A stretch of 64,000 nucleotides of DNA from positions 1 to 64,000 of IMG/VR virus record IMGVR_UViG_3300027797_000020. One strand, 5' to 3'. The notes beneath the pieces are model-generated. The model saw only the letters and a program-made list of their open reading frames with translations, had not been told where the DNA came from and ran no database searches. Shown piece after piece: positions 3,569-34,545 of the stretch (positions within the stretch are counted from its first letter, which is position 1; each line of letters begins with the position of its first letter). The position numbers were made by a program, and so were the translations under genes. The DNA is from a virus.

Positions 3569-6500
3569 ATGTCAGGTCAAAATATTAATCAATACGGTAA
3601 ACCAAATTGGGGGATTAAATTGAATTTAGATTCCCAAGATATGTCTTTGTCTAATGATGAGAGAGATTATAACGAAGAAGTTGTTTTTTCGCCATATTTA
3701 ATTGCCCAAACATATGGTAATAGATTACCATTTTCATTCGACATTAATAATACGTTATCAGTACAAAACCAAACATTATCATACAAACAATACAACAATA
3801 ATAACGTATTTGTCTCACAGAATTATTACAACATAAATAATGAAGATTTAAATTGTTATTCGGCAAGTACGTCTTGTGATATCGGATTAACCGGTATGGA
3901 TAATGGTCTTGTCGATAATTTCACAGGACAAACCATAACATTTACTAAAGGATTATTTGATAACCCGTTAAAATTTGAACGATTATATTTCGATAGACGT
4001 TTAAAAATGTTTCAAGTGACAGGTTACACTAGCACACCAAATTTCCGTTTTTCAGGATTTGATAAGACGGTATTATACGAAGTCGTTAGTAAAAACAGTC
4101 CTTATGAAGGTAGGTATCACGAATTATATGGGGGATTTTATCAAGGATTTTATAAATTATTCGGATATGATTATGAAATTTTTCCTGAAAGGATGAATAA
4201 AGGTTGGTCCGTTGAAATGTTATTAAAACCAAGATTAGTTGACGAGTATTTCCCCGAATCTGACGAAACAACATTAAATGAAATCTATCCTGATAATAAG
4301 GACACTTTCTTTTATTTTGGAACTAGAGCGGAGAATAAATTCCATCACCACGCCGACGGTTCTCCAATGTCATTAACCGGTTATACAAGAATTACTGAAC
4401 CATTGGTTGGTTTAGAAACTTGTGCTTGTTGTAATACAGGTGTAACCAATAGTCGTTGTGTATTTATTTACCCTCCTAGGTCATTAAATGAAATTCACGA
4501 TTCTCACGTTAATTATGGTTGTGATATTTGTGGATGTAGTACTTGTGGAACCACAGATAAAACAACTTGTACCACAGGTTGTACTACTTGTGGTTGTGTA
4601 CCAACAACATACGATACCTGTGGTTGGGAATGTAAAAAACATATTTGTGGAACAGGTTATACCTCATCCGTTGAGAATACTTGCGAATCAGACCCATTGT
4701 TTGATTCAATGTCAAATGCGTTATCATTCAAATTATCCGGTGACCCTAAAAACCCTAGTATTTGTATTAGAGTATTAAGAATAACAGGTGAATGTAAAAC
4801 GGTGTCATTATTAAATAATAATACGGTATCACCTGACGATATATTGTCATCTTGTTTACAAACAGGTACAACATATGTGACAGGATATACTGTTGATAAC
4901 TATTGTACATCACCAATATACCCAAGATGTCAACAAGAAAACCCTGTGTGGTTAGAAGATGAACATTGGTTTCAATTAAACGCCGTTTGGGAACGATATA
5001 CTTGGTTAGACTATTGTGATTTATATTACAGAGGTGGTTTAGGTGACATTACCACTAAATCATATTTAAATTCATTATCAAATAATGCAATATCATTAAT
5101 TACTCCTGAGTTTACACATTCAGGTGCGACCCCCGCAGAACAAATTGAGATTGTTAAGTTAAACGAGAAATGGTTGATTGATAAGGGTTATAGAAAGGGT
5201 AGATTAAAACTTTACGTAAACGGTAAACTTTTCCACACAATTCAAGATTTTGAGGAGATTATTCCAAGAGGTTTAGATACCGATAAAGAAAAACAAGTCG
5301 GAGTACCATTCAATATTTCTTGGGGTGGAGGTACTCAAGGTTTAAGAGAACATTTGATTCCTAAACCAATCCCTGTTTGTGACATTGTGGGTGGTGTATT
5401 AATTGATGTTGTATTAACTTCAGAAATAACTGAGGGGTCAATTATTATAAAGTACACTTTAACTTCTTCATCAGAGTTAAATGAAGATTTAACAGTTAAT
5501 TTCAAACAAACTTTAGACGTATTAACCGGTAACACAATTGAAATTGTTACAGGTGTAACTATTAATTCAGGATATACTGTAGGTACAACAATTATTAACC
5601 TACCTTACGATTATAACAATCTTAATGGTAATACTAGTTACTCAGACATTGATGTTTTCCCATCAAATTTGTCTAATTGTGTAAACATACAAACAATTAA
5701 CCCAATATTTCCACCGGCAAATGATTTCCAAGGTTTAGTCATCCCAATTAACGATATATTGAGTGATAACATCCCAATTAACGATTTGGGTGTAAGTAAT
5801 ATCCCTAACAATGATTTAATTAATAACAATATACCAAATAACGATTTAATTAATAACAATATACCAAATAACGATTTTACCGATAATCACATACCAAACG
5901 ATGGTTTAGGTTCAGAAATAATACCAAACAACGATATTGTATCGGTATTCCTTGCCCCACCAACTCCAACTCCAACCCCAACTATTACCCCAACAAATAC
6001 CGTAACACCAACTGTAACCCCAACAAATACCGTAACACCAACTATTACCCCAACAATAACACCAACGGAAACTGTAACTCCAACACCAACTGAAACTGTT
6101 ACCCCAACACCTACTGAAACTCCAACTCCAACACCAACGGAAACTGTAACTCCAACACCAACTGAAACTGTTACCCCAACACCTACTGAAACACCGACCC
6201 CCACACCAACTCAAACCCCAACACCAACTCAAACCCCAACAACGTCAACGACAGTTACTCCAACTCCAACTAAATTAAGATATTCATTTATAGTTACAAC
6301 AGGGTCGACACAAATATTAGCGTGTAGTAATGTTGGTACAATAACATTGTATGGTGATGAAAGTTTATTTGATACTAATTCATATTTCTATAATACACAA
6401 TACGGGTCAGTGACGACTGATATGACGGGTTACTATTCTTACAACTCAATTGTTACTGAATTAGATTCTTCAGGTGTTGTTGTTGATAGTGTATTCTCAT

Positions 6501-7168
6501 TATGCCCAACTCAAACCCCAACTCCAACCCCAACACCAACTGAAACTGTTACCCCAACACCAACTATTACCCCAACTGAAACTGTTACCCCAACACCAAC
6601 AGAAACTGTTACACCAACCCCAACTATTACCCCAACTGAAACTGTTACCCCAACACCAACTGAAACTGTTACCCCAACACCAACAGAAACTCCAACTCCA
6701 ACCCCAACTGAAACTGTTACACCAACACCAACTGAAACTGTTACCCCAACACCAACAGAAACTCCAACTAATACACCTACCGAAACACCGACAAATACAC
6801 CAACAGAAACTCCAACTAATACACCGACTGAAACCCCTACTCAAACACCAACACCGACTATAAGTTACTATTCGTATGTGTTAGGTAGTGGTGCAACTAC
6901 AACGGAAGCTTGTAATAATTACGGAATCAATAATATAACTGTTTATGCACCAATTGAAGGGGGTGTTGGTCCTAATGTTGGTGAATATTTGTATTTAACA
7001 CCGGGTAACCCACCGACTAATTCAGTTCCTGACGGATATTATTCTAACGGAATTGCTTTCTATATTGTTTCAGGTGGTTTAGGTCAAATAACGTCAGTTG
7101 ACTTAGATGGTTGTAATGGGTTGTTAACACCAACACCAACACCAACGCCAACCCCAACACAAACTTAA
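3569..7168 (+). CDS. Large putative virion protein: incomplete LamG/ConA-like domain, Cys-rich cluster, IPNND repeats, Pro-Thr(-Glu) mucin-like repeats
   Basis: 1199 aa; LamG-like strands '[10 protein letters not shown]', 'HWFQLNAVW', '[10 protein letters not shown]', 'FNISWGG'; '[20 protein letters not shown]'; (PTETVTPT)n tracts. Confidence 0.7.
5741..5950 (+). repeat. Seven tandem 30-nt repeats encoding IPxND decapeptides
   Basis: [70 protein letters not shown]. Confidence 0.85.
5957..6860 (+). repeat. Two Pro-Thr-Glu-Thr mucin-like coding repeat tracts (about 5957-6271 and 6505-6860)
   Basis: Degenerate (ccaacn)n DNA encoding [10 protein letters not shown] units. Confidence 0.9.
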
Positions 7169-7249
7169 ACACCAACCCCAACACAAACTAAATCCAATTA
7201 TGGATTATAAATTTACAAAATAAATGATATTTATAAAATAAAAAAGAAA

Positions 7250-9298
7250 ATGGCAATAGGAGTTAGAATTACTAGTAATAATTTATCAGGTCAAACCGCA
7301 AGTATTACTTTTCAATCAATGACAGGTGGAACACCGATTGATTTAGGTATACAAACAATCCCTTTTAATTATTATAACGAATTACCTTATGGTAATTTCA
7401 CAATTTCATCAACAACTTATGATTATGTGTATACATTAACGGTATCACAACCATATGGTGAAAATCAAGATTATATGTACTTGGGAAATGTCTCAGGACA
7501 AACAACCTATAGTTTAGGATTTCTAAACTTTAATGACTTTAGCGCCGAAATTATAGATTTGGGTGTTGACACAACATATTGGAATGAGAATAACTGGTAT
7601 CCGTTATCTGAAAGTGGTAGTATGTTAGATTTTCGTAATGACGGTAATACTGAACGTTTAGTATTATTTTTAGATGTTAATGGAAATGTTGTTGACCAAT
7701 TTAGTGCAACTACGTTTGATTCCCTATCAGGTATTTTAGATGGTAGAATCGCTTATTTCCAAGACCCAGATGGTGGTTTATTCTATTGGTTTAATGGGGA
7801 AACAGTTTATCAATACACATTTGACCCAAATACTGAGACATTAGACATTCAATGGGATTGGGATGCGACTTGTCTCGATAATACATTTGTATTTATTCTT
7901 AGAAACACAGGTACAACAACCTCAACCTCATATAGAGTTAGACCTAACGGGTCTGTCCAACCAATTGATTCTTGGGATTATAATCTTGAAACAAGGTATT
8001 ATGGTCTTTATTATTCATCAAAATATTTTTACGAATTTAGTTTCTTAAACGTAGATGATACTGTATCATCAATTAAAATATACAACACATCAGGTGGGTT
8101 GGTTTACTATCCCGAATTTTTATCTGAAACGTATAATAATTGGTCAATAAATTGGTACGGTAATCAATCGTTTAATATTATTTTATGGAATGATATGGAT
8201 GATTCAGTCGACTATTTAATTTTAAATCACGACTGTTTAAATGATATATCAAGCGATACAACACACGCAAAACCTAACTACCCTAATCGTTCAATTCAAA
8301 CTGACACATTATACTTCCCGAATGACGTACCTGTAGGTGGAATTTTTATTCATTTTTATAACACTACAGGTACTTTTTTCCCTGGAGGTGGTTATGAAAT
8401 AGACTATCTTGATATCGTTTATAAATTGGAAAATCAGGAATCATTACAAACTTATGTTTTTACAAATACGGGAGACAATACTAAAAAATTCTATATCTAT
8501 GGATATGGTAATAAAAATTATAACACATATTGTTCAACAGGAGGTACTAACTCATCAATATTTTCCATTAATAATGATGGGGTTAAAATAACCCCGACTG
8601 AACAAAACATTAATGAAATAACAAATGTTGATTATGATGATTTTGGCGAATATTACGTTTTAGTAAATTCAGTTGGTGATAACAGTTATTTTTATTTATC
8701 GTTAAATGGTAACATTGAGGACACGTTAACATTAGACACATCGAGTGGTTATGATTTTACTAGTCGATTTGAAGTGTTTTATGTTGAAAACTCATCAACC
8801 GCTTATTATGTTAATAATTTAGTTACAGGGTTTACACAAACAGGTTATTACAATTCAACATCAACCCCAACATCTTATTATAATAAAGACTATTATTATA
8901 GACCGGAACACTTTTTAGTATTTAACACCGCAAATGGGTTAGCTAGAGTGTTAAGTAATAATAAACTTTACAATGGATTTAGTTTACCTTTATCATATAA
9001 TGATTCTAGTGAACGTAGAATAGGTAGAGATAAATTTATTTATGTTTATAATGATAATTCAGACAATACAAGAATTAATTTATACGATTTTAATGGGGCG
9101 TTACTTAATAGTACCTTAGTCAATATTACAGGATGGGATTACGTTTACGCGGTTAAAGATAGATATGTTGTTGTTCAAGATACAATTGATGGTCAACGTT
9201 TATTGACAATGATTTCAAAGGATGAAGTAAAACAAATAACAATAGATAACCAATATTCAAGTTGGGACATAATAAACGATTATATATGGTGGGATTAA
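7250..9298 (+). CDS. Beta-rich putative virion/receptor-binding protein with shared N-terminal module
   Basis: 682 aa, rich in Y/N/D/T. Its first ~65 aa resemble the N-termini of ORFs 9669 and 11055. TATTTAT at 7228. Confidence 0.6.
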   Translation: MAIGVRITSNNLSGQTASITFQSMTGGTPIDLGIQTIPFNYYNELPYGNFTISSTTYDYVYTLTVSQPYGENQDYMYLGNVSGQTTYSLGFLNFNDFSAEIIDLGVDTTYWNENNWYPLSESGSMLDFRNDGNTERLVLFLDVNGNVVDQFSATTFDSLSGILDGRIAYFQDPDGGLFYWFNGETVYQYTFDPNTETLDIQWDWDATCLDNTFVFILRNTGTTTSTSYRVRPNGSVQPIDSWDYNLETRYYGLYYSSKYFYEFSFLNVDDTVSSIKIYNTSGGLVYYPEFLSETYNNWSINWYGNQSFNIILWNDMDDSVDYLILNHDCLNDISSDTTHAKPNYPNRSIQTDTLYFPNDVPVGGIFIHFYNTTGTFFPGGGYEIDYLDIVYKLENQESLQTYVFTNTGDNTKKFYIYGYGNKNYNTYCSTGGTNSSIFSINNDGVKITPTEQNINEITNVDYDDFGEYYVLVNSVGDNSYFYLSLNGNIEDTLTLDTSSGYDFTSRFEVFYVENSSTAYYVNNLVTGFTQTGYYNSTSTPTSYYNKDYYYRPEHFLVFNTANGLARVLSNNKLYNGFSLPLSYNDSSERRIGRDKFIYVYNDNSDNTRINLYDFNGALLNSTLVNITGWDYVYAVKDRYVVVQDTIDGQRLLTMISKDEVKQITIDNQYSSWDIINDYIWWD

Positions 9299-9299
9299 A

Positions 9300-9557
9300 A
9301 TGAGATATCAAACACAAGTAACAGTAAAATTTAAAAATAAAGGTAATTTACAAAATTCGGTTACCTCATTTGTTTTAAATGAAAATATAACAGTTTCAGA
9401 ATTTAAAACTGAAATAAAAAAAACATTAAGGTTTTTGGATACACACTCAATTGAAAATGAGATTGTTTATTTAGGTAGTAATAAATTAAATGATTCTGAC
9501 ATTGTACCTTCTGAAAAATCAGGATTACAGTTTTTTATTGAAGTAACGAACAAATAA
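9300..9557 (+). CDS. Small protein with a ubiquitin-like (beta-grasp) sequence pattern
   Basis: 'VTVK...FVLNENITVSEFKTEI...EIVYLGSNKLNDSDIV' parallels ubiquitin 'IFVK...LEVEPSDTIENVKAKI...RLIFAGKQLEDGRTL'; no C-terminal GG. Confidence 0.45.
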   Translation: MRYQTQVTVKFKNKGNLQNSVTSFVLNENITVSEFKTEIKKTLRFLDTHSIENEIVYLGSNKLNDSDIVPSEKSGLQFFIEVTNK

Positions 9558-9576
9558 CATTAATTCAAATTTAGTT

Positions 9577-9611
9577 AAAAACCCGGTATTATTAATGATA
9601 CCGGGTTTTTT
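9577..9611. terminator. Intrinsic, potentially bidirectional terminator
   Basis: AAAAACCCGGTATT-attaatg-ATACCGGGTTTTTT. Confidence 0.8.
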
Positions 9612-9668
9612 ATTACCCCAACAATAAATACTAAAACTTCTTTAGATACTATTTATAATTAAAAAATA

Positions 9669-11051
9669 ATGGCATCAACAGTAGTTATAGGAACAAACAA
9701 TTATAGTGGTGAAACCGCAGATATTACGTTCTACCCTGAAACAGGTGGGACTATTAATATTGGGTCTTACATAGTACCATACAATTATTCAACTGATTAT
9801 TTTTTCGGTACTTATGAACTATATTTTTCCGCATATAATTTTACTTGTGAATTTACAATCTCATCATCAAACCCAATACCACCACCACAAACTATTAGTG
9901 CAACAACTATTGAGTACGATTTATTTCAGAGATACACACAAGACCCTGAAAATTTATCAGATGTTGATTTAAGTGGTACAACATTTAGTGGGTTAAATAC
10001 AAATATTTTAATCAACAAATATTTCGCAGGGACATTTGAAGGTGGTATATCACAATTTAGGATGTACGTCTCACCATTGTCAGCCCCTGAAGTTAAACAC
10101 AATTTTAACTTATTGAAAAATACATTTAGGATGTTTAATCCTGATTGTCCTGATTGTTCAACTGACATTTGTCAAATTGATGATTTTACGTATGAAATTG
10201 TAGGGTCAGAAAATGTTGGAAACAATATTGAATTTAAACCTGACCCTAAATTATTAGGTAGACTACATATTCCTGATGATAGAGATAAAAATTATTTAAT
10301 AAAAGACCATTACGATTATTTAGTGTCTATAGTTAAACCACCAAGTGTTGTGGTTATTAGACCTAAAGTAACTCCAAGCAAATCACGAAGAATCGTATCA
10401 CCAACACCGAGTAGAAGTCTAAGAGTAACACCCACACCAACAAGAACCCCTCAACCAACACCTACACCAACAACTACACCACAAATTATGACCAAATATT
10501 GGAACCCTAATGGTTGGTGGGGAAATCAAGGTTCAACACCACAATGTGTTGGATTCGCTTGGGCACATTGGGTTGAAGATGGCCCTATCGAACACGGAGG
10601 TACACCACCAATAGTCCAACCCCAAATAATATATACTGAAGCTCAGAAAATTGATGAATGGCCAGGTGAAAACTATGCCGGTACATCAGTTAGAGCCGGC
10701 GCGAAATACCTACAAACTAATGGGGCGATTAAGTCGTATTATTGGGCTTATGACCTCAACACATTAATAAATACAGTATTCAACTTAGGTCCGGTAGTTG
10801 TTGGTACTTATTGGTACTCAGGTATGTTTTACCCTGATAATAACGGTCTTATCCGTATTACAGGTGGTATTGCCGGTGGTCACGCATACGTAATAAACGG
10901 TGTGGACAAATCACAAAAATTATTTAGAATTAAAAATAGTTGGGGACAAAATTGGGGTAAACAAGGACACGCATATATCTCATTTAGTGATATGGCTAAA
11001 TTAATATCAATGAACGGTGAAATTTGTTTGGCCGTTGAAAATAATTTTTAA
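9669..11051 (+). CDS. Modular protein: shared N-terminal module, LamG C-terminal strands, Pro-Thr linker, papain-like (C1) cysteine peptidase
   Basis: 'NQGSTPQCVGFAW' (oxyanion Gln, catalytic Cys), 'GGHAYVING' (His), 'IKNSWGQNWGKQG' (Asn); also 'FAGTFEGGISQFRMY..PLSAPEV'. Confidence 0.8.
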   Translation: MASTVVIGTNNYSGETADITFYPETGGTINIGSYIVPYNYSTDYFFGTYELYFSAYNFTCEFTISSSNPIPPPQTISATTIEYDLFQRYTQDPENLSDVDLSGTTFSGLNTNILINKYFAGTFEGGISQFRMYVSPLSAPEVKHNFNLLKNTFRMFNPDCPDCSTDICQIDDFTYEIVGSENVGNNIEFKPDPKLLGRLHIPDDRDKNYLIKDHYDYLVSIVKPPSVVVIRPKVTPSKSRRIVSPTPSRSLRVTPTPTRTPQPTPTPTTTPQIMTKYWNPNGWWGNQGSTPQCVGFAWAHWVEDGPIEHGGTPPIVQPQIIYTEAQKIDEWPGENYAGTSVRAGAKYLQTNGAIKSYYWAYDLNTLINTVFNLGPVVVGTYWYSGMFYPDNNGLIRITGGIAGGHAYVINGVDKSQKLFRIKNSWGQNWGKQGHAYISFSDMAKLISMNGEICLAVENNF

Positions 11052-11054
11052 TTT

Positions 11055-12197
11055 ATGAGTAACACAATAATAATATCAAGTATTAATTATGACGGTGAAC
11101 AAGCTGAAATATTGTTTAAACCTGATAATAATAATGTGACAATACACTTAGGGCCAGGTTTGGTTACATTACCATATACTTTCGACCCATCAACTTTAAC
11201 ACCACCTCGTGAGGTGTATGGTATGTACACAATATTGGTCGCAGGTAGTGACTGTCCTAATTTTTTAAATGTACCAAGGCCAATTCCAACAGTTACACCA
11301 ACTCACACACCGACAAAAACACCAACGCCAACACCAACTATTACTCCAACCCCAACTTTAACCCCAAATCCTTGTTTTATTACACCAACCCCAACTCCAA
11401 CTTTAACACCAACTGTAACTTACACACCAACACCAACAATAACACCGACAATAACACCTTCCCCATTACCTTGTTTCCAATTATATAATACTTGGTGGAG
11501 TAATAATTCATATATCTATTACACGGCTATAACGGATAATTATACTTATTCATTTTTACCGGGTGTTAACAGTATTGTTAATGGTGGATATGATATGTTT
11601 AATGTTGCTAACGTAATATTACTTAATAACCCAATCCCTAAAATATATGGTACGATTAGTACTGATTTTTTAGTTACACGTCGTAATGTTTGGCCACAAT
11701 TAACATTAGTTAGTTTAGGAAACACCGTAAGTCCACATTCAATTGGTGAAGATGGTTCACCGTCAGTCCAATTGGGCAATGACCCAACTTATGGTCAATA
11801 TGAAGTATCACGAGAAGTTATATTAACAAACGGAACTTATGATTGTGGTAATATTAATGGTTCTTGGTATCGTTATAGTAATATCGGTGTAAATCCTTCA
11901 TTTTTATCTGGTAGTACCCCATCACCATCAATTGAATATGTTTGGTTTACAGTTGAATCAACAGAATGGGTGAGTGATATAAACAATATCTCCGATAATC
12001 GAGGTGATATTTCACAACCAAGAAATTTAACATCAACTGTTACCGCAACAGGTGAGAACGCATTTATTGGTATGGTATTATTATCTAAATTTTCACCAAA
12101 TAGTCCTTCAACTATAATACCTAATAATCAAGTCACTCAATTTTTACAAAACGCTATTTGTACTATGTTTAATGATGTTAATTGTGCGAAATTTTAG
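11055..12197 (+). CDS. Putative virion protein: shared N-terminal module, Pro-Thr linker, C-terminal domain also present in the 2641-aa protein
   Basis: 'YNTWWSNNS...SIEYVWFTV...DNR...GMVLLS...[15 protein letters not shown]' matches an internal domain of ORF 12305. Confidence 0.65.
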
Positions 12198-12304
12198 TTT
12201 TTAAAACCACAAAATTTGTTTGAGGTTTAATTATTCAATTAATGACTTATTTTTTTTTATTAAACAGGTAAAATACCAAATCAATAGGTATTTATTTTAG
12301 AATA

Positions 12305-18300: not shown

Positions 18301-20230
18301 AGTTTCGGGTGATTTGTTATTAACTACAACCAATAAAATATTGGTAACTAACTACGATAATGATGCTAATACGTATATCTCACAATATAATTATTTAACA
18401 GGTCAATTTGAAGGTGAAGTTGACATAACTTTAGATATTCCAGGACCTTGGGGAATATCCCAAGATAATGGGTTAATATATATTTTCAATGGTGATGGTG
18501 ACCTATGGAATATAGATAAATTCCCACCATATAATTTAACCTTTGTTCAAAATATCGGTGTTGGTGTTGGTGGGGCCTCTCAAATTGCGAGTTGTATTAC
18601 ATCACATCTTAATTTTGGTTCTTGGTATTGTGCCGGTCGTTGTTCTCTATACGAACTATCACCATTGGGTTATGATTGTCATAGTCAACCGGGTGTTCCA
18701 AAAATCTTTTTACCTAGTGGAATACCTATGGGAACCAAAATACAAGCTACTGATGGTTATTGTTACGGACTATATCAAAATGAAGAACCAACATACACCA
18801 CAGGTACTATTATAACTCAACAAGGTACTGCAACATACGGTAGTTGTTCGTCTTGTGGTGGTGATGTCTCTATTCTAGTATCAACCGATTACCCATCACT
18901 CGTTTATTGTGAAACTGTAAACACCATTTTAGGTTACTACAGAGTTAATAACGGTCCTTGGTCAACGTTTACCGGTTCATTATCCGCAAATAACGGTGTG
19001 ACTTACACAACGTTACAAAATCTAATAGTGTCAGTTGGCTCAATAATTGACGTTTATTATCCAAATATATTATGGGGGGTAGGGTTTAATAGTGGTGACT
19101 ATACATCACGTTGTGGTAACCAATATTATCGCACAATTATCACATCCTCGCCGACTAACATTCACTTAAATGTTAAATATATAAAGACTGTAACACCAAC
19201 TGATGTTATTTGTGGTTTCCAAACTTGTCCAACATTTCCTGTCTTTGAACCTTGGACTTGGGTAGAATATGATTTTTGGAATGGCGTTTATTACGATGTT
19301 TGGAGTGATTCTGAAGGTGTTTATAATGGTAGACCTTGGTATTATATTCCAACTTATGATTACACATCAACATATTCAACTGTTTGGTATGATAATACAT
19401 CAGATGTGTGGACTGAAAGTACAACTTTAGGTGGTGGAACAATTTATTCAACATTAGATAGTTTATCACCTGATTATCCTGTTAGTAGTACCGATAGACC
19501 TTGGGTTGCCTCGTCAACGTACCAAGGGCCTTCAATGTTTAGTTCAGAACCAAGTTACCCACCTGTAACCGATGGTTTAGTACTTTGGTATGATGCTGGG
19601 TCATCAACATCTTGGCCAGGTTCAGGAACTATGTGGTATGACATCACAACCAATAATAACGGTACTTTTTACACTAACGCAACTCCGACTACACCAACGT
19701 ATCTTGACCCAAATTTTGGTGGATTTAGTTTTAACGGTACTAACCAACGTGTTATATGTGGTAATGGTCCGACATTATCAGGAATTACCAACACCGTAAC
19801 AGTTGAGGCGTGGGTTAAACCTTCATCATTTTCAGGTGATAGAGCAATTTTCAGTAAGAATAGTAATCAAGCATTTAGAATGAGACTTGACAGTACCGGT
19901 CATTTATGGATGTTAGGTGCAAAATCAGGACCATCATTTGACATATACACAAGTACAGGGACAACAACAGTTAATAATTGGGTTCAACTAGTTGGTGTGT
20001 GGACACCTACGGGTTATTACACATACATCAATGGTGTTAATGCAGGTTTTAGTACAAGTAAAACATTATTAGTTCAGGAAAATAATTTACCATTAGAAAT
20101 TGGTATGTTTACAGGTGGTTCTGAATGGTTTAATGGTACAATGTCCATTTTTAAAGTTTATAATAAAGCGTTATCCGCTTCTGAAGTTAACTCAAACTTT
20201 AATTCACTACGTTCAAGATTTGGTATATAA
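12305..20230 (+). CDS. Giant mucin-like fibre/adhesin: Pro-Thr repeats, repeated Cys modules, duplicated ~190-aa domain, C-terminal LamG/ConA-like lectin domain
   Basis: 2641 aa. C-terminus '[19 protein letters not shown]...TVEAWVKP...WVQLVGVW...YING...[22 protein letters not shown]' is a complete LamG-type domain. Confidence 0.8.
13075..14340 (+). repeat. ~420-codon Pro-Thr mucin-like tract ([18 protein letters not shown]-type units)
   Basis: Continuous degenerate repeat; about every second residue is Thr; the DNA is almost G-free on the + strand. Confidence 0.95.
15137..17848 (+). repeat. Internal duplication of a ~580-nt domain (15137-15718 and 17270-17848)
   Basis: Both copies encode ANC....EFIARTQ...PEPC..SHGCN...[14 protein letters not shown]...LLGIPRRG...GNRYSR...[33 protein letters not shown]...DPC. 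Confidence 0.9.
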
Positions 20231-20294
20231 AAAACCATAATTACAACTTTATTTATCGAAAATAAACTTTATAATTAAATAAAACAATTTAATT

Positions 20295-21545
20295 ATGAAA
20301 ATTTTTGTACAAATCGCGTCATATCGTGACCCTGAATTAGAGAAGACGGTTAAGGATATGATTGAAAACTCTAAAAAACCAAATAACCTTAGAATTGGTA
20401 TTTGTCGTCAATATCACCCTGAAGACGGTTTTGATACTTTAGATGAATATCGTAACGATAAACGTTTTAGAATTTTAGATGTATTATATTCGGATTCTAA
20501 AGGAGTTTGTTGGGCAAGAAATCAAGTACAACAATTATATGGTGGTGAAGAATATACGTTACAAATTGACTCTCATATGAGATTCGAAAAAAATTGGGAC
20601 GACACCTTAATCAAAATGGTTAAACAACTTCAAAAGAAAGGTTTCCAAAAACCATTATTGACAGGGTATGTATCATCATTTAACCCTGAGAACGACCCGG
20701 CAGAAAGAGTTAGAGAACCTTGGAGAATGGTTTTTGATAGATTTATCCCTGAAGGTGCGGTATTCTTTTTACCTGAAACAATACCAGGTTGGGAAAAATT
20801 AAAAGAACCTGTACCCTCAAGATTTTATTCTGCCCATTTCGCATTCACGTTAGGAGAATTTAGTAATGAGGTTCAACACGACCCTGAATTTTATTTCCAC
20901 GGTGAAGAAATTTCAATTGCGGTGAGAGCTCATACTCACGGATATGATTTATTTCACCCACATAAAGTTGTTGTTTGGCACGAATACACACGTAAAGGTA
21001 GAACAAAACAATGGGATGATGATATTGATTGGGTAAATAAAAATAATTTATCACACCAAAAAAATAGACAATTATTCGGTATGGACGGTGAAGAAGTTAC
21101 TATGGACTTTAGTCATTATGGTTTTGGAACTGAACGTACATTAAAAGATTATGAAATTTATTCAGGGTTACGTTTCTCTAATCGAGCGGTACAACAACAC
21201 ACATTAGATAAACAATACCCACCTAATCCGGTTATTTATGAATCTGATGAAGATTGGGAAGCTAGTTTCGCATCAATATTCAAACATTGTATTGATGTTA
21301 GTTATGATTCAGTTCCTGAAACGGATTATGACTTTTGGGTTGTTGCGTTTCACGATGAAAATGACGAAACAATTCACCGACAAGACGCTGACATTCACGA
21401 AATTAATCGTATGAAAAATGACCCTGATGGTTATTGTAAAGTTTGGAGAGAATTTCAAACAACAAGTAAACCAAAACAATGGGTTGTTTGGCCACATAGT
21501 ATTTCAAAAGGATGGTGTGATAGATTAACGGGAAATTTACATTAA
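20295..21545 (+). CDS. GT60-like polypeptide/hydroxyproline GlcNAc-transferase (Gnt1/OGNT family, Pfam GlcNAc)
   Basis: 'KIFVQIASYRDPEL', 'SKGVCWARN', 'YTLQIDSHMRF..NWD', 'FHGEEISIAVRA.THGYDLFHP...VWHEY' are hallmark motifs of this family. Confidence 0.8.
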   Translation: MKIFVQIASYRDPELEKTVKDMIENSKKPNNLRIGICRQYHPEDGFDTLDEYRNDKRFRILDVLYSDSKGVCWARNQVQQLYGGEEYTLQIDSHMRFEKNWDDTLIKMVKQLQKKGFQKPLLTGYVSSFNPENDPAERVREPWRMVFDRFIPEGAVFFLPETIPGWEKLKEPVPSRFYSAHFAFTLGEFSNEVQHDPEFYFHGEEISIAVRAHTHGYDLFHPHKVVVWHEYTRKGRTKQWDDDIDWVNKNNLSHQKNRQLFGMDGEEVTMDFSHYGFGTERTLKDYEIYSGLRFSNRAVQQHTLDKQYPPNPVIYESDEDWEASFASIFKHCIDVSYDSVPETDYDFWVVAFHDENDETIHRQDADIHEINRMKNDPDGYCKVWREFQTTSKPKQWVVWPHSISKGWCDRLTGNLH

Positions 21546-21552
21546 TTTAAAA

Positions 21553-22257
21553 ATGGTAACAATTAATGATGTTAAAATTGCCGATTTAGGGTTTTTTATT
21601 AACTTAGATAAGAGAACGGACAGGTTAGAAAAAATTAACGAACAGTTTAACGAATTTAACATAAATGGAGTTGAACGTTTTTCTGCGGTCGACACATTAG
21701 ATTCCGGCCCATTAAACTGTAAACAAAGTCATTATCGGTTATATGAAGAATTTTTGAAAACTGATAGTCAAGTTTTATTAGTTCTTGAGGATGATTGTTT
21801 ATTTTTGGACCCGTTAAAAACGGAATATGAAGAGATTATTAATGACATTTATTCCACGGATTGGGATTTATATTGGTTAGGTTGTAGAAATAGACGTTGG
21901 CCGGTTCATTATAAAAATAAGTCGTATAAAGTTAGTTCAGTTGCTCACACACAATCGTATTTAATAAAACGAAATATGTGTGAATATCTCTTAGAGACTT
22001 ATCCGATGGATAGTCATATTACTACCGCAATTGATGAGTTATTGTGTTTATCAATTTACGGTTTTGACGTTACAACAAACCCAAACGCTTTTAATTTTTA
22101 CCAATTAGATAACCCATTAAATGATTTACCAACGATATTCACATCACTGTGTTATGAAAAATCACTTACAAGTCAGTACGCATCATATAGTGATTTGTGG
22201 CATATGGATGTTAATTATACCGATTATATAAAAAGTTCACACCCAAATAATAAATGA
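21553..22257 (+). CDS. Glycosyltransferase family 25-like
   Basis: 'FFINLDKRTDR', 'ERFSAVD', 'C..SH', 'LVLEDD', 'WDLYWLG', 'HTQSYLI', 'AIDE'. Confidence 0.8.
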   Translation: MVTINDVKIADLGFFINLDKRTDRLEKINEQFNEFNINGVERFSAVDTLDSGPLNCKQSHYRLYEEFLKTDSQVLLVLEDDCLFLDPLKTEYEEIINDIYSTDWDLYWLGCRNRRWPVHYKNKSYKVSSVAHTQSYLIKRNMCEYLLETYPMDSHITTAIDELLCLSIYGFDVTTNPNAFNFYQLDNPLNDLPTIFTSLCYEKSLTSQYASYSDLWHMDVNYTDYIKSSHPNNK

Positions 22258-23021
22258 GTAGAATTAAATTAGTTACAGTTACTTGGTCATATGAAGATAC
22301 TTATGAGATTAATGACTCATTTTTAATCAAATCATTTTTAAATCATAACGATGAAAGTGATTTAATCAAAATACATTTCAATCGAAATAACTATAAAGAT
22401 TTAGAGACCGAGTTTAACTCCAAATTTGGGTATCAATATGAATTCCTATTATATAGGATTTATCTTCTAAAAGAAAAATTGTCCGAGATTGAGGATGATT
22501 TATTAATATTCTCAGATACGGGGGATGTTGTTTGTTTAGACAATATCCAAAAGTTAGATTCAATTAATTTTGATAATTTATTATTTTCAAGTGAAAACCA
22601 CAGATACCCAAACGAGGTTAATATAATGAATTGGACCCCAAATTATAGATACCCTCAAGAGAATTATGATATGTTAAATTATTTAAATGCTGGTCTATCG
22701 TTTGGTAAACGTGAGAATTTTATCACTTTTCTAAATGAATGTGTGAGTACTATTTTACCAAATGAATATAAAAATTTTGGTGGTGACCAAGGTGTATTCA
22801 CGTATTATTACATAAATAATAATATTAACACCAACTCAATACGACTTGATAATACGTTTCAAATATTTTTAAGTACATATCTTAAATCTTATCACGACTT
22901 TAAGTTAGAGGACGGTAAGATAGTTAGTTTGGCGTACAACACAACCCCAATGTTTATTCACGATAATGGGTGGAATTATGGTAGTCCAAAATTCATAAAT
23001 CATTTTAATTTACTACAATGA
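22254..23021 (+). CDS. PLOD/LH3-type GT-A glycosyltransferase
   Basis: 'LIFSDTGDVV', 'LLFSSE', 'YLNAGLSFG', 'GDQGVFT', 'LDNTFQIF', 'PMFIHDNG' follow the procollagen glycosyltransferase-domain pattern. Confidence 0.7.
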   Translation: MSRIKLVTVTWSYEDTYEINDSFLIKSFLNHNDESDLIKIHFNRNNYKDLETEFNSKFGYQYEFLLYRIYLLKEKLSEIEDDLLIFSDTGDVVCLDNIQKLDSINFDNLLFSSENHRYPNEVNIMNWTPNYRYPQENYDMLNYLNAGLSFGKRENFITFLNECVSTILPNEYKNFGGDQGVFTYYYINNNINTNSIRLDNTFQIFLSTYLKSYHDFKLEDGKIVSLAYNTTPMFIHDNGWNYGSPKFINHFNLLQ

Positions 23022-23800
23022 TATTTGCAACAACTTGTTTTGGTGAAGATAGACGTGAAGATACGTTACATTTTTTAAATGATATTCGAAATCTTGATTA
23101 TTCAGTATATGTTATAACAAACATTGAGTTACATCTTAACCATTTTCAATTTGACAATGTTATCATCATTAAAGTTGATGAGAATTATTATCAAGATTTT
23201 TTCAGATACAAATTAATGTTGGAGATTTTTGAAACCACTGATGAAGAAATCATTTATTACTTGGATTCTGATAGTCGATTTTTTAATTTTAGACACGAAA
23301 AGTTCGATAAGGAGAATTTTGATAAATTAATTGAATCTAAAGATTTTGACATATTAACCGCTTGGTTAACCGACAGTGTTTCGTTATTTTTCGAAAAACC
23401 TGAAGATAATGAGAATAAGTTTATTCGACAATTTAAGTACGGGTACGAATCGTTACACCAATATATGAGTAATAAATACCCCGACTATATAAATCATTTA
23501 AATCTACACAATTCTTGGGAGGGTCATCTAATTTTACGAAAAAGTGACAACCTCATCGAATTTCTAAAAGAACTAATAATAATTGGTGATATTTTGGTTG
23601 TGGAAGACATTAAAAATGACCGTACACAAATTGCTTGTTGTAGTTCGGCGTTAATTAGTTTGATGTCCAAGTTAATGAATCTAAAGTTAATCCAAGACCC
23701 TATAACTCACCATTTTTTTAAAGCTAACTTCTTAAAAGAAGTTTTCCCATTCAATTTTAAAATTAATAAATATGAAAAAGTATTCCCTGATAACAACTAG
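23018..23800 (+). CDS. Putative GT-A glycosyltransferase
   Basis: DxD motif 'IYYLDSDSRF' after a beta-alpha N-terminus; overlaps both neighbours in the GT cluster. Confidence 0.5.
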   Translation: MIFATTCFGEDRREDTLHFLNDIRNLDYSVYVITNIELHLNHFQFDNVIIIKVDENYYQDFFRYKLMLEIFETTDEEIIYYLDSDSRFFNFRHEKFDKENFDKLIESKDFDILTAWLTDSVSLFFEKPEDNENKFIRQFKYGYESLHQYMSNKYPDYINHLNLHNSWEGHLILRKSDNLIEFLKELIIIGDILVVEDIKNDRTQIACCSSALISLMSKLMNLKLIQDPITHHFFKANFLKEVFPFNFKINKYEKVFPDNN

Positions 23801-24506
23801 TTTTTGTACTAATTGTGCCGAACCAAGTAAAGAATTGTTAAAACATAAATTTAATTATGACGGAGATATTGAGGATATTTTTGTTAATTTCTCAAATTTA
23901 TTCTCACCTTTTGATTTTACAAAAATACCAAATATTGGTATTAGTAAAAGACGTGATTTAGTTTACGGTAAAATTTTTCGTTTAAAATCATTTATTGAGG
24001 ATAACATTTTGGGTAAATATGAATTTCTTTGTCACATAGATTATTCAGATACTAAATTTTGTGGTAGTTTTTTAGAAATGATGGGTAAGTTTGAACAAAC
24101 AAACGAAGACTTAATTATCTCAACAGAAAAAACCGCTTGGCCTTACATTTATGAAATCAATAAATGGTCTAACACAAATTTAGAAGAAAGTGAATTTACT
24201 TTTTTAAATTCAGGTGCGGTTATATCAAAGACTGAAAATTTCTACAATACACTAATTAAATTATCCGACATATGTCTAAACAGTAACATTGATTTTTGGG
24301 ACGACCAAGGTGTTTGGCAATATTATGATTTAAATATTAGTGAACTAAAAAAAGACCACAAATGTGAGTTTTTCTTTTCAACGGCCTTATTAGATAACAC
24401 TTATTATTCTATTGATAATAATAAAATTAAAACTAAATTTAATACCATACCGTATTTAATACACGATAACTCAAGCTTTAGCTTAAATTTAATTAACACA
24501 TTTTAA
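23772..24506 (+). CDS. Second PLOD/LH3-type GT-A glycosyltransferase
   Basis: 'HIDYSDTKF', 'LIISTEK', 'FLNSGAVI', 'DDQGVW', 'PYLIHDN'; paralogous to ORF 22254. Confidence 0.7.
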   Translation: MKKYSLITTSFCTNCAEPSKELLKHKFNYDGDIEDIFVNFSNLFSPFDFTKIPNIGISKRRDLVYGKIFRLKSFIEDNILGKYEFLCHIDYSDTKFCGSFLEMMGKFEQTNEDLIISTEKTAWPYIYEINKWSNTNLEESEFTFLNSGAVISKTENFYNTLIKLSDICLNSNIDFWDDQGVWQYYDLNISELKKDHKCEFFFSTALLDNTYYSIDNNKIKTKFNTIPYLIHDNSSFSLNLINTF

Positions 24507-24509
24507 AAT

Positions 24510-25118
24510 ATGAAAGATGTAACAGGTTGGTTCTCATATGAAGGAATCGCAACACAACAACACGACGATGTTGAACAAGTTTTTGAACAATTATTTACCC
24601 AAACTAAACCTGTCCGTATTTTAGAAATTGGTACTGCGTTTGGTGGTTTAACTTTATTACTACGAAATTTACTTGATAGAATTTCACTTGGTGAAACTGA
24701 TATTAGAACTTATGATGTTGAACCTAAAAATTATTTATCAGAACATATTGAGAATGGGGTTAGGATTGATAGTCGAATAAAAGACATATTTAATCACGCG
24801 TATAGTGATTTAGTAGAAGTCGAGGAAATCACTTCATATATACAATCTGAAGGTGTAACAATTGTGTTATGTGACGGGGGAAGTAAAAAAAATGAGTTTA
24901 GAATATTATCTAAATTATTAAAACCTGGTGATATTATTATGGCTCACGATTACGCACCAAATGAAAGTTACTTTTTAGAACACATTAGAAATAATATATG
25001 GAATTGGTTAGAAATACAAGATTTAGATATCGAACAACCTTGTATTGACAATAACTTACAACCATATATGGATGAAGAATTTAAAAAAGTCGTTTGGGCT
25101 TGTAAAATTAAACAATAA
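24510..25118 (+). CDS. Class I SAM-dependent methyltransferase (probable glycan O-methyltransferase)
   Basis: Motif I 'RILEIGTAFGG', 'VLCDGG', 'LKPGDIIMAHD'. Confidence 0.8.
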   Translation: MKDVTGWFSYEGIATQQHDDVEQVFEQLFTQTKPVRILEIGTAFGGLTLLLRNLLDRISLGETDIRTYDVEPKNYLSEHIENGVRIDSRIKDIFNHAYSDLVEVEEITSYIQSEGVTIVLCDGGSKKNEFRILSKLLKPGDIIMAHDYAPNESYFLEHIRNNIWNWLEIQDLDIEQPCIDNNLQPYMDEEFKKVVWACKIKQ

Positions 25119-25128
25119 AATAGTAGAA

Positions 25129-26844
25129 ATGTCTAACGTAACAATAGTAACAGGTTTATGGGATATTGGCCGAGATAAATTAAACAATGATTGGTCTCGC
25201 GATTTCACCCATTATATTGATAAATTTGATGAGTTATTAAAAATTGATTGTAATTTGATAATTTTTGGTGATGAGAATCTTCAAAAACACGTTATGTCAA
25301 CACGTAACACATCAAACACTCAATTTATATTAAGAAATACTGATTGGTTTAAAGATAATACATATTACGACCAAATCCAAAATATTAAAAACAACCCTGA
25401 ATGGTATAACCAAGTCGGATGGTTAAAAGAATCGACTCAAGCTAAGTTAGAAATGTATAACCCATTAGTTATGAGTAAAGTTTTCTTACTTAATGACGCA
25501 AGAATAATGGATAAATTTAATTCCGATTATTTATTTTGGTTAGATGCGGGAATAACTAACACTGTTCATCCCGGATATTTCACTCACGATAAAGTAATTG
25601 AGAAATTACCAAAATACGCAACAAAATTTAGTTTCTTAGCGTTTCAATATGATGCCGAATCTGAAATACACGGTTTTAACTATTCGGAATTAAATAAATT
25701 TGCAGGACATACCGTTAAATTAGTCGGTAGAGGAGGTTTTTTTGGTGGACCAAAAGAAAGTATCTCAAATGTTAACGGACTTTACTATTCATTATTAAAT
25801 GAGTCTTTAAGTAAAGGGTTGATGGGGACTGAGGAAAGTATATTTTCAATTATGTTATACAAATTCCCCGAAGTTTTTAATTACTTTGAGGTTGAAAATA
25901 ACGGATTAGTTTCCAAATTTTTTGAAGACTTAAAAAATGATTCCGTAATACCTAAAAAAACAATTGAGGTTATTGAATCGTCACCGTCTAACAAACCATT
26001 TAATCAGGTTACATCAGAATTAAAAATAACATCATCAGATAAAGTAGGTTTGTACGTTATTGGATTTAATAGTCCGTCTCAATTAGAGACTTTAGTTACC
26101 TCAATGTTAGAGTATGATAAAAATTTTATTGAAAAACCAAGAAAAATATTGTTGGATAACTCAACTGATTTATCCACAACACCAATATATAGCGAATTAT
26201 GTTCTAAGTATGGGTTTGAACATATTAAAAAAGATAATTTAGGTATTTGTGGTGGTAGACAATGGATTGCGGAACATTTTGACAAATCTGATTTAGAATA
26301 TATGTTCTTTTTCGAGGACGATATGTTTTTCTACCCTAAAAAAGGTGAAGTTTGTCGTAACGGATTTAATCGTATGGTTGATAATCTGTACGATAAGTCA
26401 ATTAACATATCTAAGTCAGAAAAGTTTGATTATTTAAAACTTAATTTTAGTGAATTTTTTGGTGACAACTCTACTCAATGGACTTGGTACAATGTACCCC
26501 AAGTTGTTAGAGAACAATATTGGCCGGATTATTCAAAATTACCGGAACACGGAACTGACCCTAACGCACCCAAAGTTAAATACGAGAATGTAAAAATACA
26601 CGAAGGGATACCATATGTTACAGGTGATGTGTATTATTGTAATTGGCCTCAATTAGTCTCTAAAACAGGTAATAAAAAAATGTTTTTAGAAACAACGTGG
26701 GCACATCCATATGAACAAACGTGGATGAGTCATATGTTTCAAGAATTAAAAAAAGGTAAATTAAATTTCGGTCTTTTATTGTTAACACCAACGGAACATA
26801 ACAGATTTGACCATTATAATAGAGAATTACGAAAAGAAAGTTAA
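25129..26844 (+). CDS. HtrL/YibB (WlaTC)-like glycosyltransferase fused to a GT2-like domain
   Basis: 'VTIVTGLWDIGR', 'YNPLVMSKVFLL', 'FWLDAG', 'GGFFGG', 'GTEESIF', then a second domain with 'GICGGRQ', 'FFFEDD'. Start moved from 25045 to the ATG at 25129 to avoid a long overlap. Confidence 0.75.
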   Translation: MSNVTIVTGLWDIGRDKLNNDWSRDFTHYIDKFDELLKIDCNLIIFGDENLQKHVMSTRNTSNTQFILRNTDWFKDNTYYDQIQNIKNNPEWYNQVGWLKESTQAKLEMYNPLVMSKVFLLNDARIMDKFNSDYLFWLDAGITNTVHPGYFTHDKVIEKLPKYATKFSFLAFQYDAESEIHGFNYSELNKFAGHTVKLVGRGGFFGGPKESISNVNGLYYSLLNESLSKGLMGTEESIFSIMLYKFPEVFNYFEVENNGLVSKFFEDLKNDSVIPKKTIEVIESSPSNKPFNQVTSELKITSSDKVGLYVIGFNSPSQLETLVTSMLEYDKNFIEKPRKILLDNSTDLSTTPIYSELCSKYGFEHIKKDNLGICGGRQWIAEHFDKSDLEYMFFFEDDMFFYPKKGEVCRNGFNRMVDNLYDKSINISKSEKFDYLKLNFSEFFGDNSTQWTWYNVPQVVREQYWPDYSKLPEHGTDPNAPKVKYENVKIHEGIPYVTGDVYYCNWPQLVSKTGNKKMFLETTWAHPYEQTWMSHMFQELKKGKLNFGLLLLTPTEHNRFDHYNRELRKES

Positions 26845-26873
26845 GGGGTGAGAAATTACCCCTTTATTTTTTT
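26843..26873 (+). terminator. Intrinsic terminator after the glycosylation cluster
   Basis: AAGGGGTG-agaaat-TACCCCTT followed by a T-rich tail. Confidence 0.7.
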
Positions 26874-26905
26874 AATATCAAACTATTTATTAATAAAAAC
26901 GATAA

Positions 26906-27592
26906 ATGGATTTTTTTATTAAAAAAAATGCAACACTGCCAGTATTAAAACTACAAGTGGTTAAAGACGGAAGAAGTGATTACGATAATTTTATGAAAAC
27001 CATAGAATTGTCAGCAATCTTTTTTTCAATGGTTGATGTTGATACAGGTATTCCAAAAATTAGTTCAAAACCTGCGGGGTTTGTTGAGAAAACATTTATA
27101 GACCCAAACGCGGAACCTGAATACTACATATATTACCAATTAAGTCCTAATGACACTAACCGTGTTGGGAAGTATGAAGGTCAATTTATGTTAAGAAACG
27201 ACGATGGGGTTTTAATTTTACCAATTCGCGAAAAATTACACATATACGTTCAGGAATCTTTTATTGCCGATGACTTACAATATGAGAGTTGTTATGTTTC
27301 AGAATTTCCTTGTTGTGTTAATGGACCTTATACCACAACAACAACAACCACACCTTGTCCAAGTTGCGGACCTTGTAATACACCAACACCAACACCGACA
27401 GTAACTGAGACCCCAACACAAACTCCAACACAAACAATAACACCAACTATTACATTAACACCAACAACATCAGTTACCCCAACACCAACACCTACACCAA
27501 CCGCAACACCTGTACAAATAATTAACGATGCAATCTTAATTAGTACCGACACTTATATATCTGTTGGCCAAAATCAATATTTATCGTTTTAA
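26906..27592 (+). CDS. BppU-like baseplate/fibre attachment protein with Cys cluster and Pro-Thr tail
   Basis: 'FFIKKNATLPVLKLQV...YYQL...DT..VGKYEGQF' BppU-N-like pattern, then TTTTTT, CPSCGPC and (PT)n. Confidence 0.6.
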   Translation: MDFFIKKNATLPVLKLQVVKDGRSDYDNFMKTIELSAIFFSMVDVDTGIPKISSKPAGFVEKTFIDPNAEPEYYIYYQLSPNDTNRVGKYEGQFMLRNDDGVLILPIREKLHIYVQESFIADDLQYESCYVSEFPCCVNGPYTTTTTTTPCPSCGPCNTPTPTPTVTETPTQTPTQTITPTITLTPTTSVTPTPTPTPTATPVQIINDAILISTDTYISVGQNQYLSF

Positions 27593-34503: not shown

Positions 34504-34545
34504 TTTGCTTATTATTATATCCAATAAATAAGCGGAAGTTTTGAT

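Follow-up and report, generated by a model that had tools for sequence, protein, structure and literature searches.

A candidate O-glycosylation operon encoded beside Pro-Thr-rich fibre genes in an uncultured jumbo phage

Introduction

Glycosylation of virions by phage-encoded enzymes has been shown in few cases, mainly in mycobacteriophages. It is known there and suspected in phage XacN1, the virions of which contain at least two Schiff-positive protein bands (PMC5852040, Suppl. Fig. S4); the authors of that study suggest that phage glycosyltransferases (GTs) make glycoproteins, the proteins, acceptor sites, and responsible enzyme not being identified there (PMC5852040). The characterised members of CAZy family GT60 are polypeptide alpha-N-acetylglucosamine (alpha-GlcNAc) transferases, which in Dictyostelium and Trypanosoma cruzi initiate O-glycans of the mucin type on Thr-rich domains (PMC8724618, PMC9472816), and no paper linking GT60 or its Pfam family PF11397 to phages or to Pro-Thr (PT) repeats was found. 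Here we describe an operon that opens with a GT60-type gene and is flanked by PT-repeat genes. It lies in the first 64 kb (the window) of the 94,328-bp IMG/VR record IMGVR_UViG_3300027797_000020, the CheckV completeness of which is 32%.

We consider it fairly probable that this operon serves a phage-encoded, cytoplasmic O-glycosylation of the Thr-rich (PT and poly-Thr) stalks of the phage's own fibre and baseplate-associated proteins. A preliminary description of the window, made from the sequence, had proposed self-glycosylated fibres made by a seven-gene pathway clustered with its PT substrates. The enzyme families, the phage origin, the shared upstream motif, and, at the genome level, the co-occurrence of GT60 with PT tracts have held up, whereas the pathway as a fixed unit and a general clustering with PT genes have not.

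Results

The GT60-type enzyme and its operon

Seven enzyme genes are packed one behind the other in the same direction; they overlap or abut, the overlaps measuring 4 nt at both 22254 and 23018 and 29 nt at 23772. The genes are designated by the first position of their open reading frames (ORFs):

20295..21545, plus strand: GT60-type GT (PF11397 'GlcNAc', E 5e-72)
21553..22257, plus strand: GT25-family GT (Pfam E 6e-13); variable cassette
22254..23021, plus strand: GT_PLOD (PLOD/LH3-type GT-A) with a DTGD (DxxD) motif (Pfam E 1e-13); variable cassette
23018..23800, plus strand: probable GT-A with a DSD motif, no Pfam match or curated family; variable cassette
23772..24506, plus strand: PLOD-type GT paralogue with a DYSD motif, no Pfam match, 30% identity to ORF 22254 (E 7e-12); variable cassette
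24510..25118, plus strand: CmcI/Methyltransf_24-like S-adenosylmethionine methyltransferase (E 1e-4 and 3e-4, under the Pfam cut-offs); variable cassette
25129..26844, plus strand: double-GT enzyme with an HtrL/YibB-like half (residues 1 to 280) and a GT2-like half (residues 303 to 568)

These families are the ones named in the preliminary description or close to them: GT60, GT25, GT_PLOD, and HtrL_YibB were recovered by Pfam, and ORF 23772 was assigned by paralogy. NCBIfam gave no match for six of the seven enzymes.

ORF 20295 reached 243.6 bits against PF11397 (cut-off 21), covering profile positions 2 to 43 and 93 to 350 of 352, and also matched phrog_24687 (E 7e-167); a GT60 sequence search of the PDB returned nothing meaningful. 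Asp92-x-His94 is invariant in 38 GT60 homologues with identities down to 37%, and we take it to be the DxH-type metal/nucleotide-sugar motif of the GT27/GT60 group of GT-A enzymes. ORF 20295 has neither a Golgi-type membrane anchor (the maximal 19-residue hydropathy is 0.88) nor a signal-like N terminus, and its predicted location resembles that of the soluble Gnt1 subgroup. On these sequence features, we propose that ORF 20295 is an initiating polypeptide alpha-GlcNAc transferase. Among 8,000 candidates scored, more than 7,400 relatives in metagenomes were found at E <= 0.001. A separate metagenomic protein of 2461 aa (P0126) contains four PF11397-like stretches and carries the JGI name Tpa1-like prolyl 4-hydroxylase/peroxiredoxin; if real, it would fuse a hydroxylase to several GT60 domains.

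As for the enzymes between the first and the last gene, ORF 22254 matched human LH3 in the PDB (E 7e-4), and language-model features of ORF 23018 showed a similarity of 0.96 to viral GT-like clusters, which we regard as a lead only. Homologues of ORF 24510 in relatives reach E 7e-21, and the protein is probably a sugar O-methyltransferase.

For the double-GT enzyme, the most likely start codon is ATG 25129, which gives 571 aa, in place of TTG 25045. Its N-terminal half matches HtrL_YibB (E 4e-18), its C-terminal half weakly matches GT2 (E 0.002), and E396-D397-D398 is invariant; its profile found nothing meaningful among PDB sequences. The fold model (predicted local distance difference test, pLDDT, 84) features two Rossmann-like GT-A domains joined by a disordered linker (residues 281 to 302). 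Foldseek matched it, at E 6e-11 to 1e-9, to the two-domain GTs Mimivirus R699 (described in PMC9546862 and PMC12279948), K4 chondroitin polymerase (K4CP), LARGE1, LH3, and COLGALT1; since the TM-scores are low (0.24 to 0.35) owing to a different domain arrangement, 'tandem GT-A' alone is supported for this enzyme. Several of the matched proteins, namely, Mimivirus R699, LH3, COLGALT1, and LARGE1, act on protein-linked glycans. A polymerase activity of the double-GT enzyme would be pure conjecture.

Pro-Thr fibre genes flanking the operon

The five PT-tract ORFs reported in the preliminary description were confirmed by translation, and a six-frame scan of the window showed no PT tract outside them. 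They are listed together with ORF 7250 and with a sixth PT open frame that lies beyond the window:

3569..7168, plus strand: fibre-type protein of 1199 aa with an N-terminal region of about 790 aa, IPNND repeats, and a short PT tail at the end
7250..9298, plus strand: 682 aa, with an N-terminal domain of about 70 aa common to the next three fibre genes and no PT tract
9669..11051, plus strand: 460 aa, with the shared N-terminal domain, a PT linker (10416 to 10496), and a C-terminal papain-like (C1) peptidase (about 10485 to 11039)
11055..12197, plus strand: 380 aa, with the shared N-terminal domain, a 67-aa PT tract (11271 to 11471), and a C-terminal module
12305..20230, plus strand: beads-on-a-string protein of 2641 aa with ten PT tracts and repeated Cys-rich modules
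26906..27592, plus strand: 228 aa, with a conserved 135-aa Ig-like N-terminal domain up to CCVNGP, followed by a poly-Thr/CxxC/PT tail (27332 to 27520)
92607..94328 of the record (contig end), minus strand: PT open frame with PT/Thr-x tracts of 442 aa in total, the longest of 383 aa

As in a mucin-like system, dense Thr/Pro repeat domains are thus encoded together with the putative initiating enzyme. The Thr residues number 209 in ORF 3569, 42 in ORF 9669, 55 in ORF 11055, 552 in ORF 12305, and 36 in ORF 26906. The DNA pattern coding for TPTxTPTxTPT occurs 33 times in the 94-kb record, the reversed control pattern not at all, and the PT tracts are well beyond chance expectation. The longest tract within the five, previously put at about 420 aa, was recovered in ORF 12305 at 13061 to 14350 (residues 253 to 682), where it measures 430 aa by a 70% P+T window and 399 aa uninterrupted.

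The architecture of these proteins suggests interchangeable parts. Alignment of the consecutive fibre ORFs 7250, 9669, 11055, and 12305 (window positions 7250 to 12574) delineated their common N-terminal domain, which is probably an attachment domain for interchangeable fibres. The peptidase domain of ORF 9669 matched PF00112 (E 1e-5) and the phrog_16701 peptidase (E 4e-52). The C-terminal module of ORF 11055 (11472 to 12197) recurs in ORF 12305 at residues 1301 to 1537 (16205 to 16915; 27% identity, E 5e-13), and modules are thus shuffled among the PT-linked genes. The C terminus of ORF 12305 is formed by a Laminin_G_3/ConA-like domain (about 19736 to 20191; PF13385, E 4e-24). ORF 3569, which matches no Pfam family, has two PT tracts of 111 and 124 aa (5948 to 6280 and 6497 to 6868) with small Cys-containing globular modules between them; homologues of it are found upstream of GT60 in 22 related loci.

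The N-terminal domain of ORF 26906 gave its best VIA matches to baseplate proteins of phages 80alpha, TP901-1, and NF5 (Z 7.8 to 8.3), with unrelated Ig folds reaching Z 6.6 to 8.1, and Foldseek returned nothing for it at E <= 1e-3. Of 80 related loci, 75 contain a detectable homologue of this ORF, which follows the double-GT gene in every locus with both; most homologues have hypervariable tails after CCVNGP, composed of T5 to T8 runs split by CxxC, of PT repeats, and sometimes of entire extra domains. This layout of a common anchor, a Thr-rich stalk, and a variable head fits stalks that display effector domains. In two loci (L030:17159-18259 and L057:17234-18334), the anchor domain of ORF 26906 is fused directly to a papain-like peptidase of the ORF 9669 type; identical types of head are thus found on more than one anchor.

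Two conserved genes enclose a hypervariable cassette

GT60 has 287 related viral loci, of which 80 were kept for comparison; the counts given here are from these 80. GT60 was present in all 80 (74 to 93% identity) and the double-GT enzyme in 77. Homologues of the genes between them were far less constant: the methyltransferase was found in 19 loci, GT25 in 9, ORF 23772 in 3, and PLOD-GT and ORF 23018 in none, mostly with other genes in their place. The gene order reads PT fibre genes, GT60, variable cassette, double-GT, and ORF 26906 homologue. A census of the cassettes identified 48 distinct versions in 72 loci, with 1 to 8 genes and 1 to 7 kb each, and the 176 cassette proteins formed 94 clusters. 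By Pfam, the GTs among them belong to GT25, GT34, the GT10 and GT11 fucosyltransferases, GT7, GT2, PLOD-GT, and DUF273, the other proteins being FkbM/MT_24/MT_23 methyltransferases, carbamoyltransferase, DegT aminotransferase, nucleotidyltransferase, epimerase, GNAT, and HAD; nearly all of these families build or tailor glycans. The seven genes were formerly described as one pathway; of this, the conservation of GT60 and double-GT stands, while the five genes between them are a hypervariable cassette. The real unit is therefore a pair of conserved bookends round an exchangeable set of tailoring genes, a layout that recalls, by analogy, surface-glycan loci under diversifying selection.

The same pair exists in cultured phages. 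A GT60 homologue with 46 to 48% identity was detected in 4 of 50,697 phage records, the Xanthomonas phages XacN1 and Xoo-sp13 and the Stenotrophomonas phages CM1 and RAS14, and a full-length double-GT in the same four records only. In XacN1, GT60 is ORF334 (48% identity) and the double-GT is ORF330 (42%), with a carbamoyltransferase and two ORFs between them; PT and Pro-Ser (PS) tracts are located in ORF350 (about 200 aa) and ORF325. The Schiff-positive virion bands mentioned in the Introduction thus come from a phage with this module and are indirect evidence for glycans on such proteins.

Promoter motif, cell location, and the question of envelope or DNA targets

The motif TATTTAT, reported upstream of both the operon and the structural genes, is present at 20250..20256 on the plus strand, with the start of GT60 45 nt further on. 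The plus strand has 31 copies of it, 14 of which sit 16 to 48 nt upstream of 13 plus-strand genes, 12 of structural type plus the GT60 operon; the distances are 17 nt for ORF 3569, 22 nt for ORF 7250, and 16 nt for ORF 12305. None precedes the PolB, gp32, UvsX, or exonuclease gene, so that the sharing of the motif between operon and structural genes is borne out, the replication genes being without it. Of 55 distinct relatives, 30 have the motif between -42 and -54 relative to GT60 and one more has it at -85, despite divergence of the surrounding sequence. We regard the copy at 20250 as a candidate late promoter of the operon. No membrane-like or hydrophobic segment was predicted in any of the seven operon enzymes, and the cassette census of the relatives lists no flippase, polymerase, ligase, phosphoglycosyl-transferase, or oligosaccharyltransferase family. 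The motif, the lack of hydrophobic segments, and the lack of flippase, polymerase, and oligosaccharyltransferase fit a stepwise cytoplasmic glycosylation of folded or disordered protein late in infection.

These data also bear on a different target, namely, that the operon remodels an envelope glycoconjugate of the host, such as the core of lipopolysaccharide (LPS) or lipooligosaccharide (LOS) or another cytoplasmically assembled glycan, and thereby blocks superinfection or the sticking of progeny to debris. HtrL/YibB and GT25 are familiar from LPS-core synthesis loci, the core GTs are likewise soluble or peripheral and hence compatible with the missing transmembrane segments, and hypervariable GT cassettes are similar to O-antigen and LOS loci. 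We nevertheless regard envelope remodelling as quite unlikely: the family of the lead enzyme acts on polypeptides where it has been characterised, the operon has the late structural-gene motif and is not grouped with early genes, the cassette census includes no flippase, polymerase, ligase, or phosphoglycosyl-transferase, and in this clade the module is placed among fibre genes.

A third potential acceptor is the phage DNA, which the operon might hypermodify with glycans and so protect from restriction, as in T-even phages. The module adjoins the DNA polymerase gene here and in XacN1, and the C-terminal half of the double-GT weakly matches a PHROG of beta-glucosyl-hydroxymethylcytosine alpha-glucosyltransferase (E 0.0014) and TAGT (E 0.08). 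Phage GTs placing diverse glycans on DNA are known (PMC13326640; Pyle 2024, as cited in PMC12619734). The PF00303 genes of the relative G003 and of XacN1, however, encode canonical thymidylate synthase, scoring above the TIGR03284 cut-off (other routes to hydroxymethyl-pyrimidines were not searched), and the promoter motif of the operon is that of the structural genes; both findings weaken a DNA glycosylation. Furthermore, a paper on glycosylated 5-hydroxycytosine makes no mention of GT60, PF11397, or HtrL. To our knowledge, up to six GT domains plus tailoring enzymes exceed the known DNA glycosylation systems. A search for Tet/JBP was blank everywhere, including the controls, and is hence uninformative on absence. 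Taken together, we consider DNA as the acceptor very unlikely.

In three relatives, the thymidylate synthase genes (G001:5332-7607, G002:60011-61096, and G003:253155-254405) gave two or three PF00303 matches lying apart from one another; they may be interrupted by an intein, an intron, or a similar element.

Glycosylation of the Skp1 type, i.e., linked to hydroxyproline (Hyp), is weakened in turn, because a PF13640-type (2OG-FeII_Oxy_3) prolyl hydroxylase, the sole 2-oxoglutarate (2OG) family searched, was absent from the 32%-complete record, from the two complete relatives G001 and G002, and from XacN1, with positive controls.

Association of GT60 with PT tracts

PT tracts are present in the flanks of 74 of the 80 close-clade loci, which is no test of an association, as GT60 is universal there. 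At the genome level, the pattern coding for TPTxTPTxTPT was found in seven of eight GT60-positive phage genomes versus none of five GT60-negative large myoviruses (1.25 Mb), the reversed control being absent everywhere; this co-occurrence is suggestive only, because the positives stem from two phage lineages. The co-occurrence expected from the preliminary description was thus recovered for whole genomes, while the physical clustering is specific to this sub-clade.

Homologues of PF11397 were detected in at least 572 bacterial genome stretches. Of 74 species-genome loci with bacterial GT60 homologues (36 to 62% identity), 22 contain PT tracts; the phyla include Gemmatimonadota, Verrucomicrobiota, Acidobacteriota, Planctomycetota, Actinomycetota, and several classes of Pseudomonadota. 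Some loci are mutually related, so that the independent cases are fewer. In all 22, the nearest PT tract lies within 6 kb of the GT60 homologue, and none was found in the 423 kb at 6 to 10 kb. Even so, such a clustering by position favours a functional connection of this enzyme family with PT tracts.

Several observations weigh against self-glycosylated stalks. PT tracts are common as rigid interdomain linkers, for which glycosylation is unnecessary, and the LPS-core associations described above apply to two of the operon's families. In a sister sub-clade (GT60 60 to 68% identity), no Thr/Pro tract occurs within 10 kb of the module; many PT-coding matches lie about 80 kb and about 70 kb off it in two of the three genomes, and in the third (54% complete) there were none. 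The physical clustering is hence particular to the lineage, although the genome-level co-occurrence mostly holds. Some 70% of the bacterial GT60 loci lack a PT tract within 10 kb. The giant proteins adjoining the module in XacN1, Xoo-sp13, and RAS14 each possess one PT linker of 38 to 47 aa, and in Xoo-sp13 and RAS14 a linker of 44 to 47 aa is the entire PT content near the module. That the five PT proteins belong to the virion is presumed from the anchor-stalk-head design and the promoter motif. Finally, no measured glycan, glycopeptide, or activity was found for this phage or for any phage or bacterial PF11397 enzyme.

The distance between module and PT genes in the sister sub-clade and the scarcity of PT near the module in Xoo-sp13 and RAS14 would also be expected if the operon glycosylated other virion proteins (capsid, sheath, or tube) and the PT tracts were plain extended linkers common in the lineage. 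A precedent is provided by mycobacteriophages, in which, according to PMC12619734 (citing Freeman 2023), glycans are located at the C termini of capsid and tail-tube subunits. We judge this alternative unlikely, since those GT60 acceptors that have been characterised are Thr-rich domains of the mucin type (PMC8724618, PMC9472816), the gene right after the module encodes pure poly-Thr runs behind its conserved domain, and PT tracts lie close to the bacterial GT60 homologues.

Lineage and host of the phage

The window encodes a contractile-tail sheath protein, gp32, a UvsX-like recombinase, an SNF2 helicase, and a family-B DNA polymerase, which identifies the source as a distant T4-like myovirus. 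Since the genomes of two complete relatives comprise 322,477 and 322,372 bp, the lineage is one of jumbo phages; the phage is an uncultured one from freshwater, of about 320 kb. The assumption of a phage origin is borne out by this jumbo myovirus gene set; an origin from a giant eukaryotic virus was considered and rejected, as tail sheath, gp32, UvsX, and T4-type PolB are all encoded.

A Bacteroidota host is hinted at by three features: the G+C content of the record (about 33%); five SprB repeats (PF13573, E 5e-22) in a fibre-type protein (L124:103-2457, record 84.1 to 86.4 kb); and the closest species-genome GT60 matches, which are contigs binned as Saprospiraceae/Bacteroidia metagenome-assembled genomes and are probably the phage itself. 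The SprB repeat is familiar from the Flavobacterium gliding adhesin. Within this set, the contigs L125 to L130, with GT60 66 to 78% identical to the window gene, look like jumbo-phage genomes binned with their host, a possible host clue; L128 is a 230-kb contig of 34% GC in a Saprospiraceae bin. Aquatic Bacteroidota jumbo phages ('moraphage') with four core GT families have been described (PMC12619734).

Elsewhere in the record, positions 32965 to 34524 of the window (minus strand) encode a protein of 519 aa, residues 43 to 233 of which form a complete Fe/Mn superoxide dismutase (PF00081, E 2e-22; PF02777, E 1e-39), followed by about 285 more residues of unknown family. For the gene at 86.9 to 87.9 kb of the record (L124:2897-3922), Pfam gave no match at E <= 0.05.

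Discussion

Proposed mechanism and significance

For the glycosylation of PT and poly-Thr stalks, the following course may be envisaged. Late in infection, the operon and the structural genes would be transcribed together. The soluble GT60-type enzyme would put the first N-acetylhexosamine, most likely alpha-GlcNAc from host UDP-GlcNAc, on Thr residues of the disordered tracts, and the conserved two-domain GT would extend the chain by one or more sugars, perhaps in the form of repeats. The cassette (GT25, two PLOD-type GTs, a further GT-A, and the methyltransferase) would then finish and cap the chain, and, since it varies between phages, stalks of one kind would bear different glycans in related phages. 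What we infer here from the genes is which residues accept the sugars, which sugars are added, in what order the enzymes act, and how the fibres are affected physically.

More tentatively, and with somewhat less confidence than an even chance would express, at least two jumbo-phage lineages may make true mucin-like glycoproteins, in which GT60 primes, the two-domain GT extends, and the exchangeable cassette confers a strain 'glyco-serotype'. If true, this would be the virion counterpart of bacterial O-antigen loci, with diversifying selection from host enzymes, lectins, or grazers.

If the stalks are glycosylated in the way proposed, mucin-type glycans coat the fibres of an abundant group of jumbo phages from freshwater, whose near-identical GT60 proteins number more than 7,000 in metagenomes, and the GT60 family, characterised in protists only, is at work in phages, with the glycan diversified via a modular cassette. 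This would bear on adsorption, stability, protease resistance, and immune or lectin recognition and, given the bacterial PF11397 homologues, on how mucin-type O-glycosylation arose in evolution. For glyco-engineering in bacteria, the cassette moreover offers a collection of soluble enzymes that build glycans. The system is directly testable, as XacN1 is culturable and has the same core module.

Comparison with known systems

Protist mucin-type O-glycosylation (Dictyostelium pp-alphaGlcNAcT2/modB and T. cruzi TcOGNT1/2) resembles the phage system in that the initiator belongs to the same Pfam family, PF11397, in that the acceptor-like sequences are PT(V)T repeats and poly-Thr runs, and in that enzymes for extension and capping, including Gal-, Fuc-, and methyl-transferase families, come next. 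In contrast to it, the phage system, with its putative donor, linkage, and acceptor, is prokaryotic and viral, its enzymes are soluble and predicted to be cytoplasmic instead of residing in the Golgi, and they are encoded in one operon with a swappable middle cassette. The Skp1 pathway of Dictyostelium and Toxoplasma (P4H1, the GT60 enzyme Gnt1, and further GTs) likewise employs a soluble cytoplasmic GT60, after which further soluble GTs act in sequence, bifunctional enzymes with two domains among them; Skp1, however, requires prolyl hydroxylation and is modified at one Hyp on one protein, whereas the candidate acceptors of the phage are long repeats.

The giant viruses, with the Mimivirus collagen GTs L230 and R699 and the capsid glycans of chloroviruses, also have soluble viral GTs that act on their own repetitive structural proteins, including PLOD/LH3-type and two-domain folds, but they have eukaryotic hosts, hydroxylysine or Asn acceptors, and no GT60 initiator. 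LARGE1 and K4 chondroitin polymerase share with ORF 25129, as predicted, the presence of two GT-A domains per chain, and differ from it in the domain arrangement.

Among phages, the mycobacteriophages provide a parallel in that, according to papers citing Freeman et al. (2023, Cell Host Microbe), phage GTs encoded beside structural genes decorate virion proteins inside the host; the acceptors named there are the C termini of capsid and tail-tube proteins, and the accounts available describe no GT60, mucin-like repeats, or bookend/cassette layout. XacN1 (PMC5852040) combines the GT60 and double-GT pair, with genes between them, with PT/PS tracts and Schiff-positive virion proteins, and differs from the phage studied here in its cassette, which consists of the carbamoyltransferase and two ORFs.

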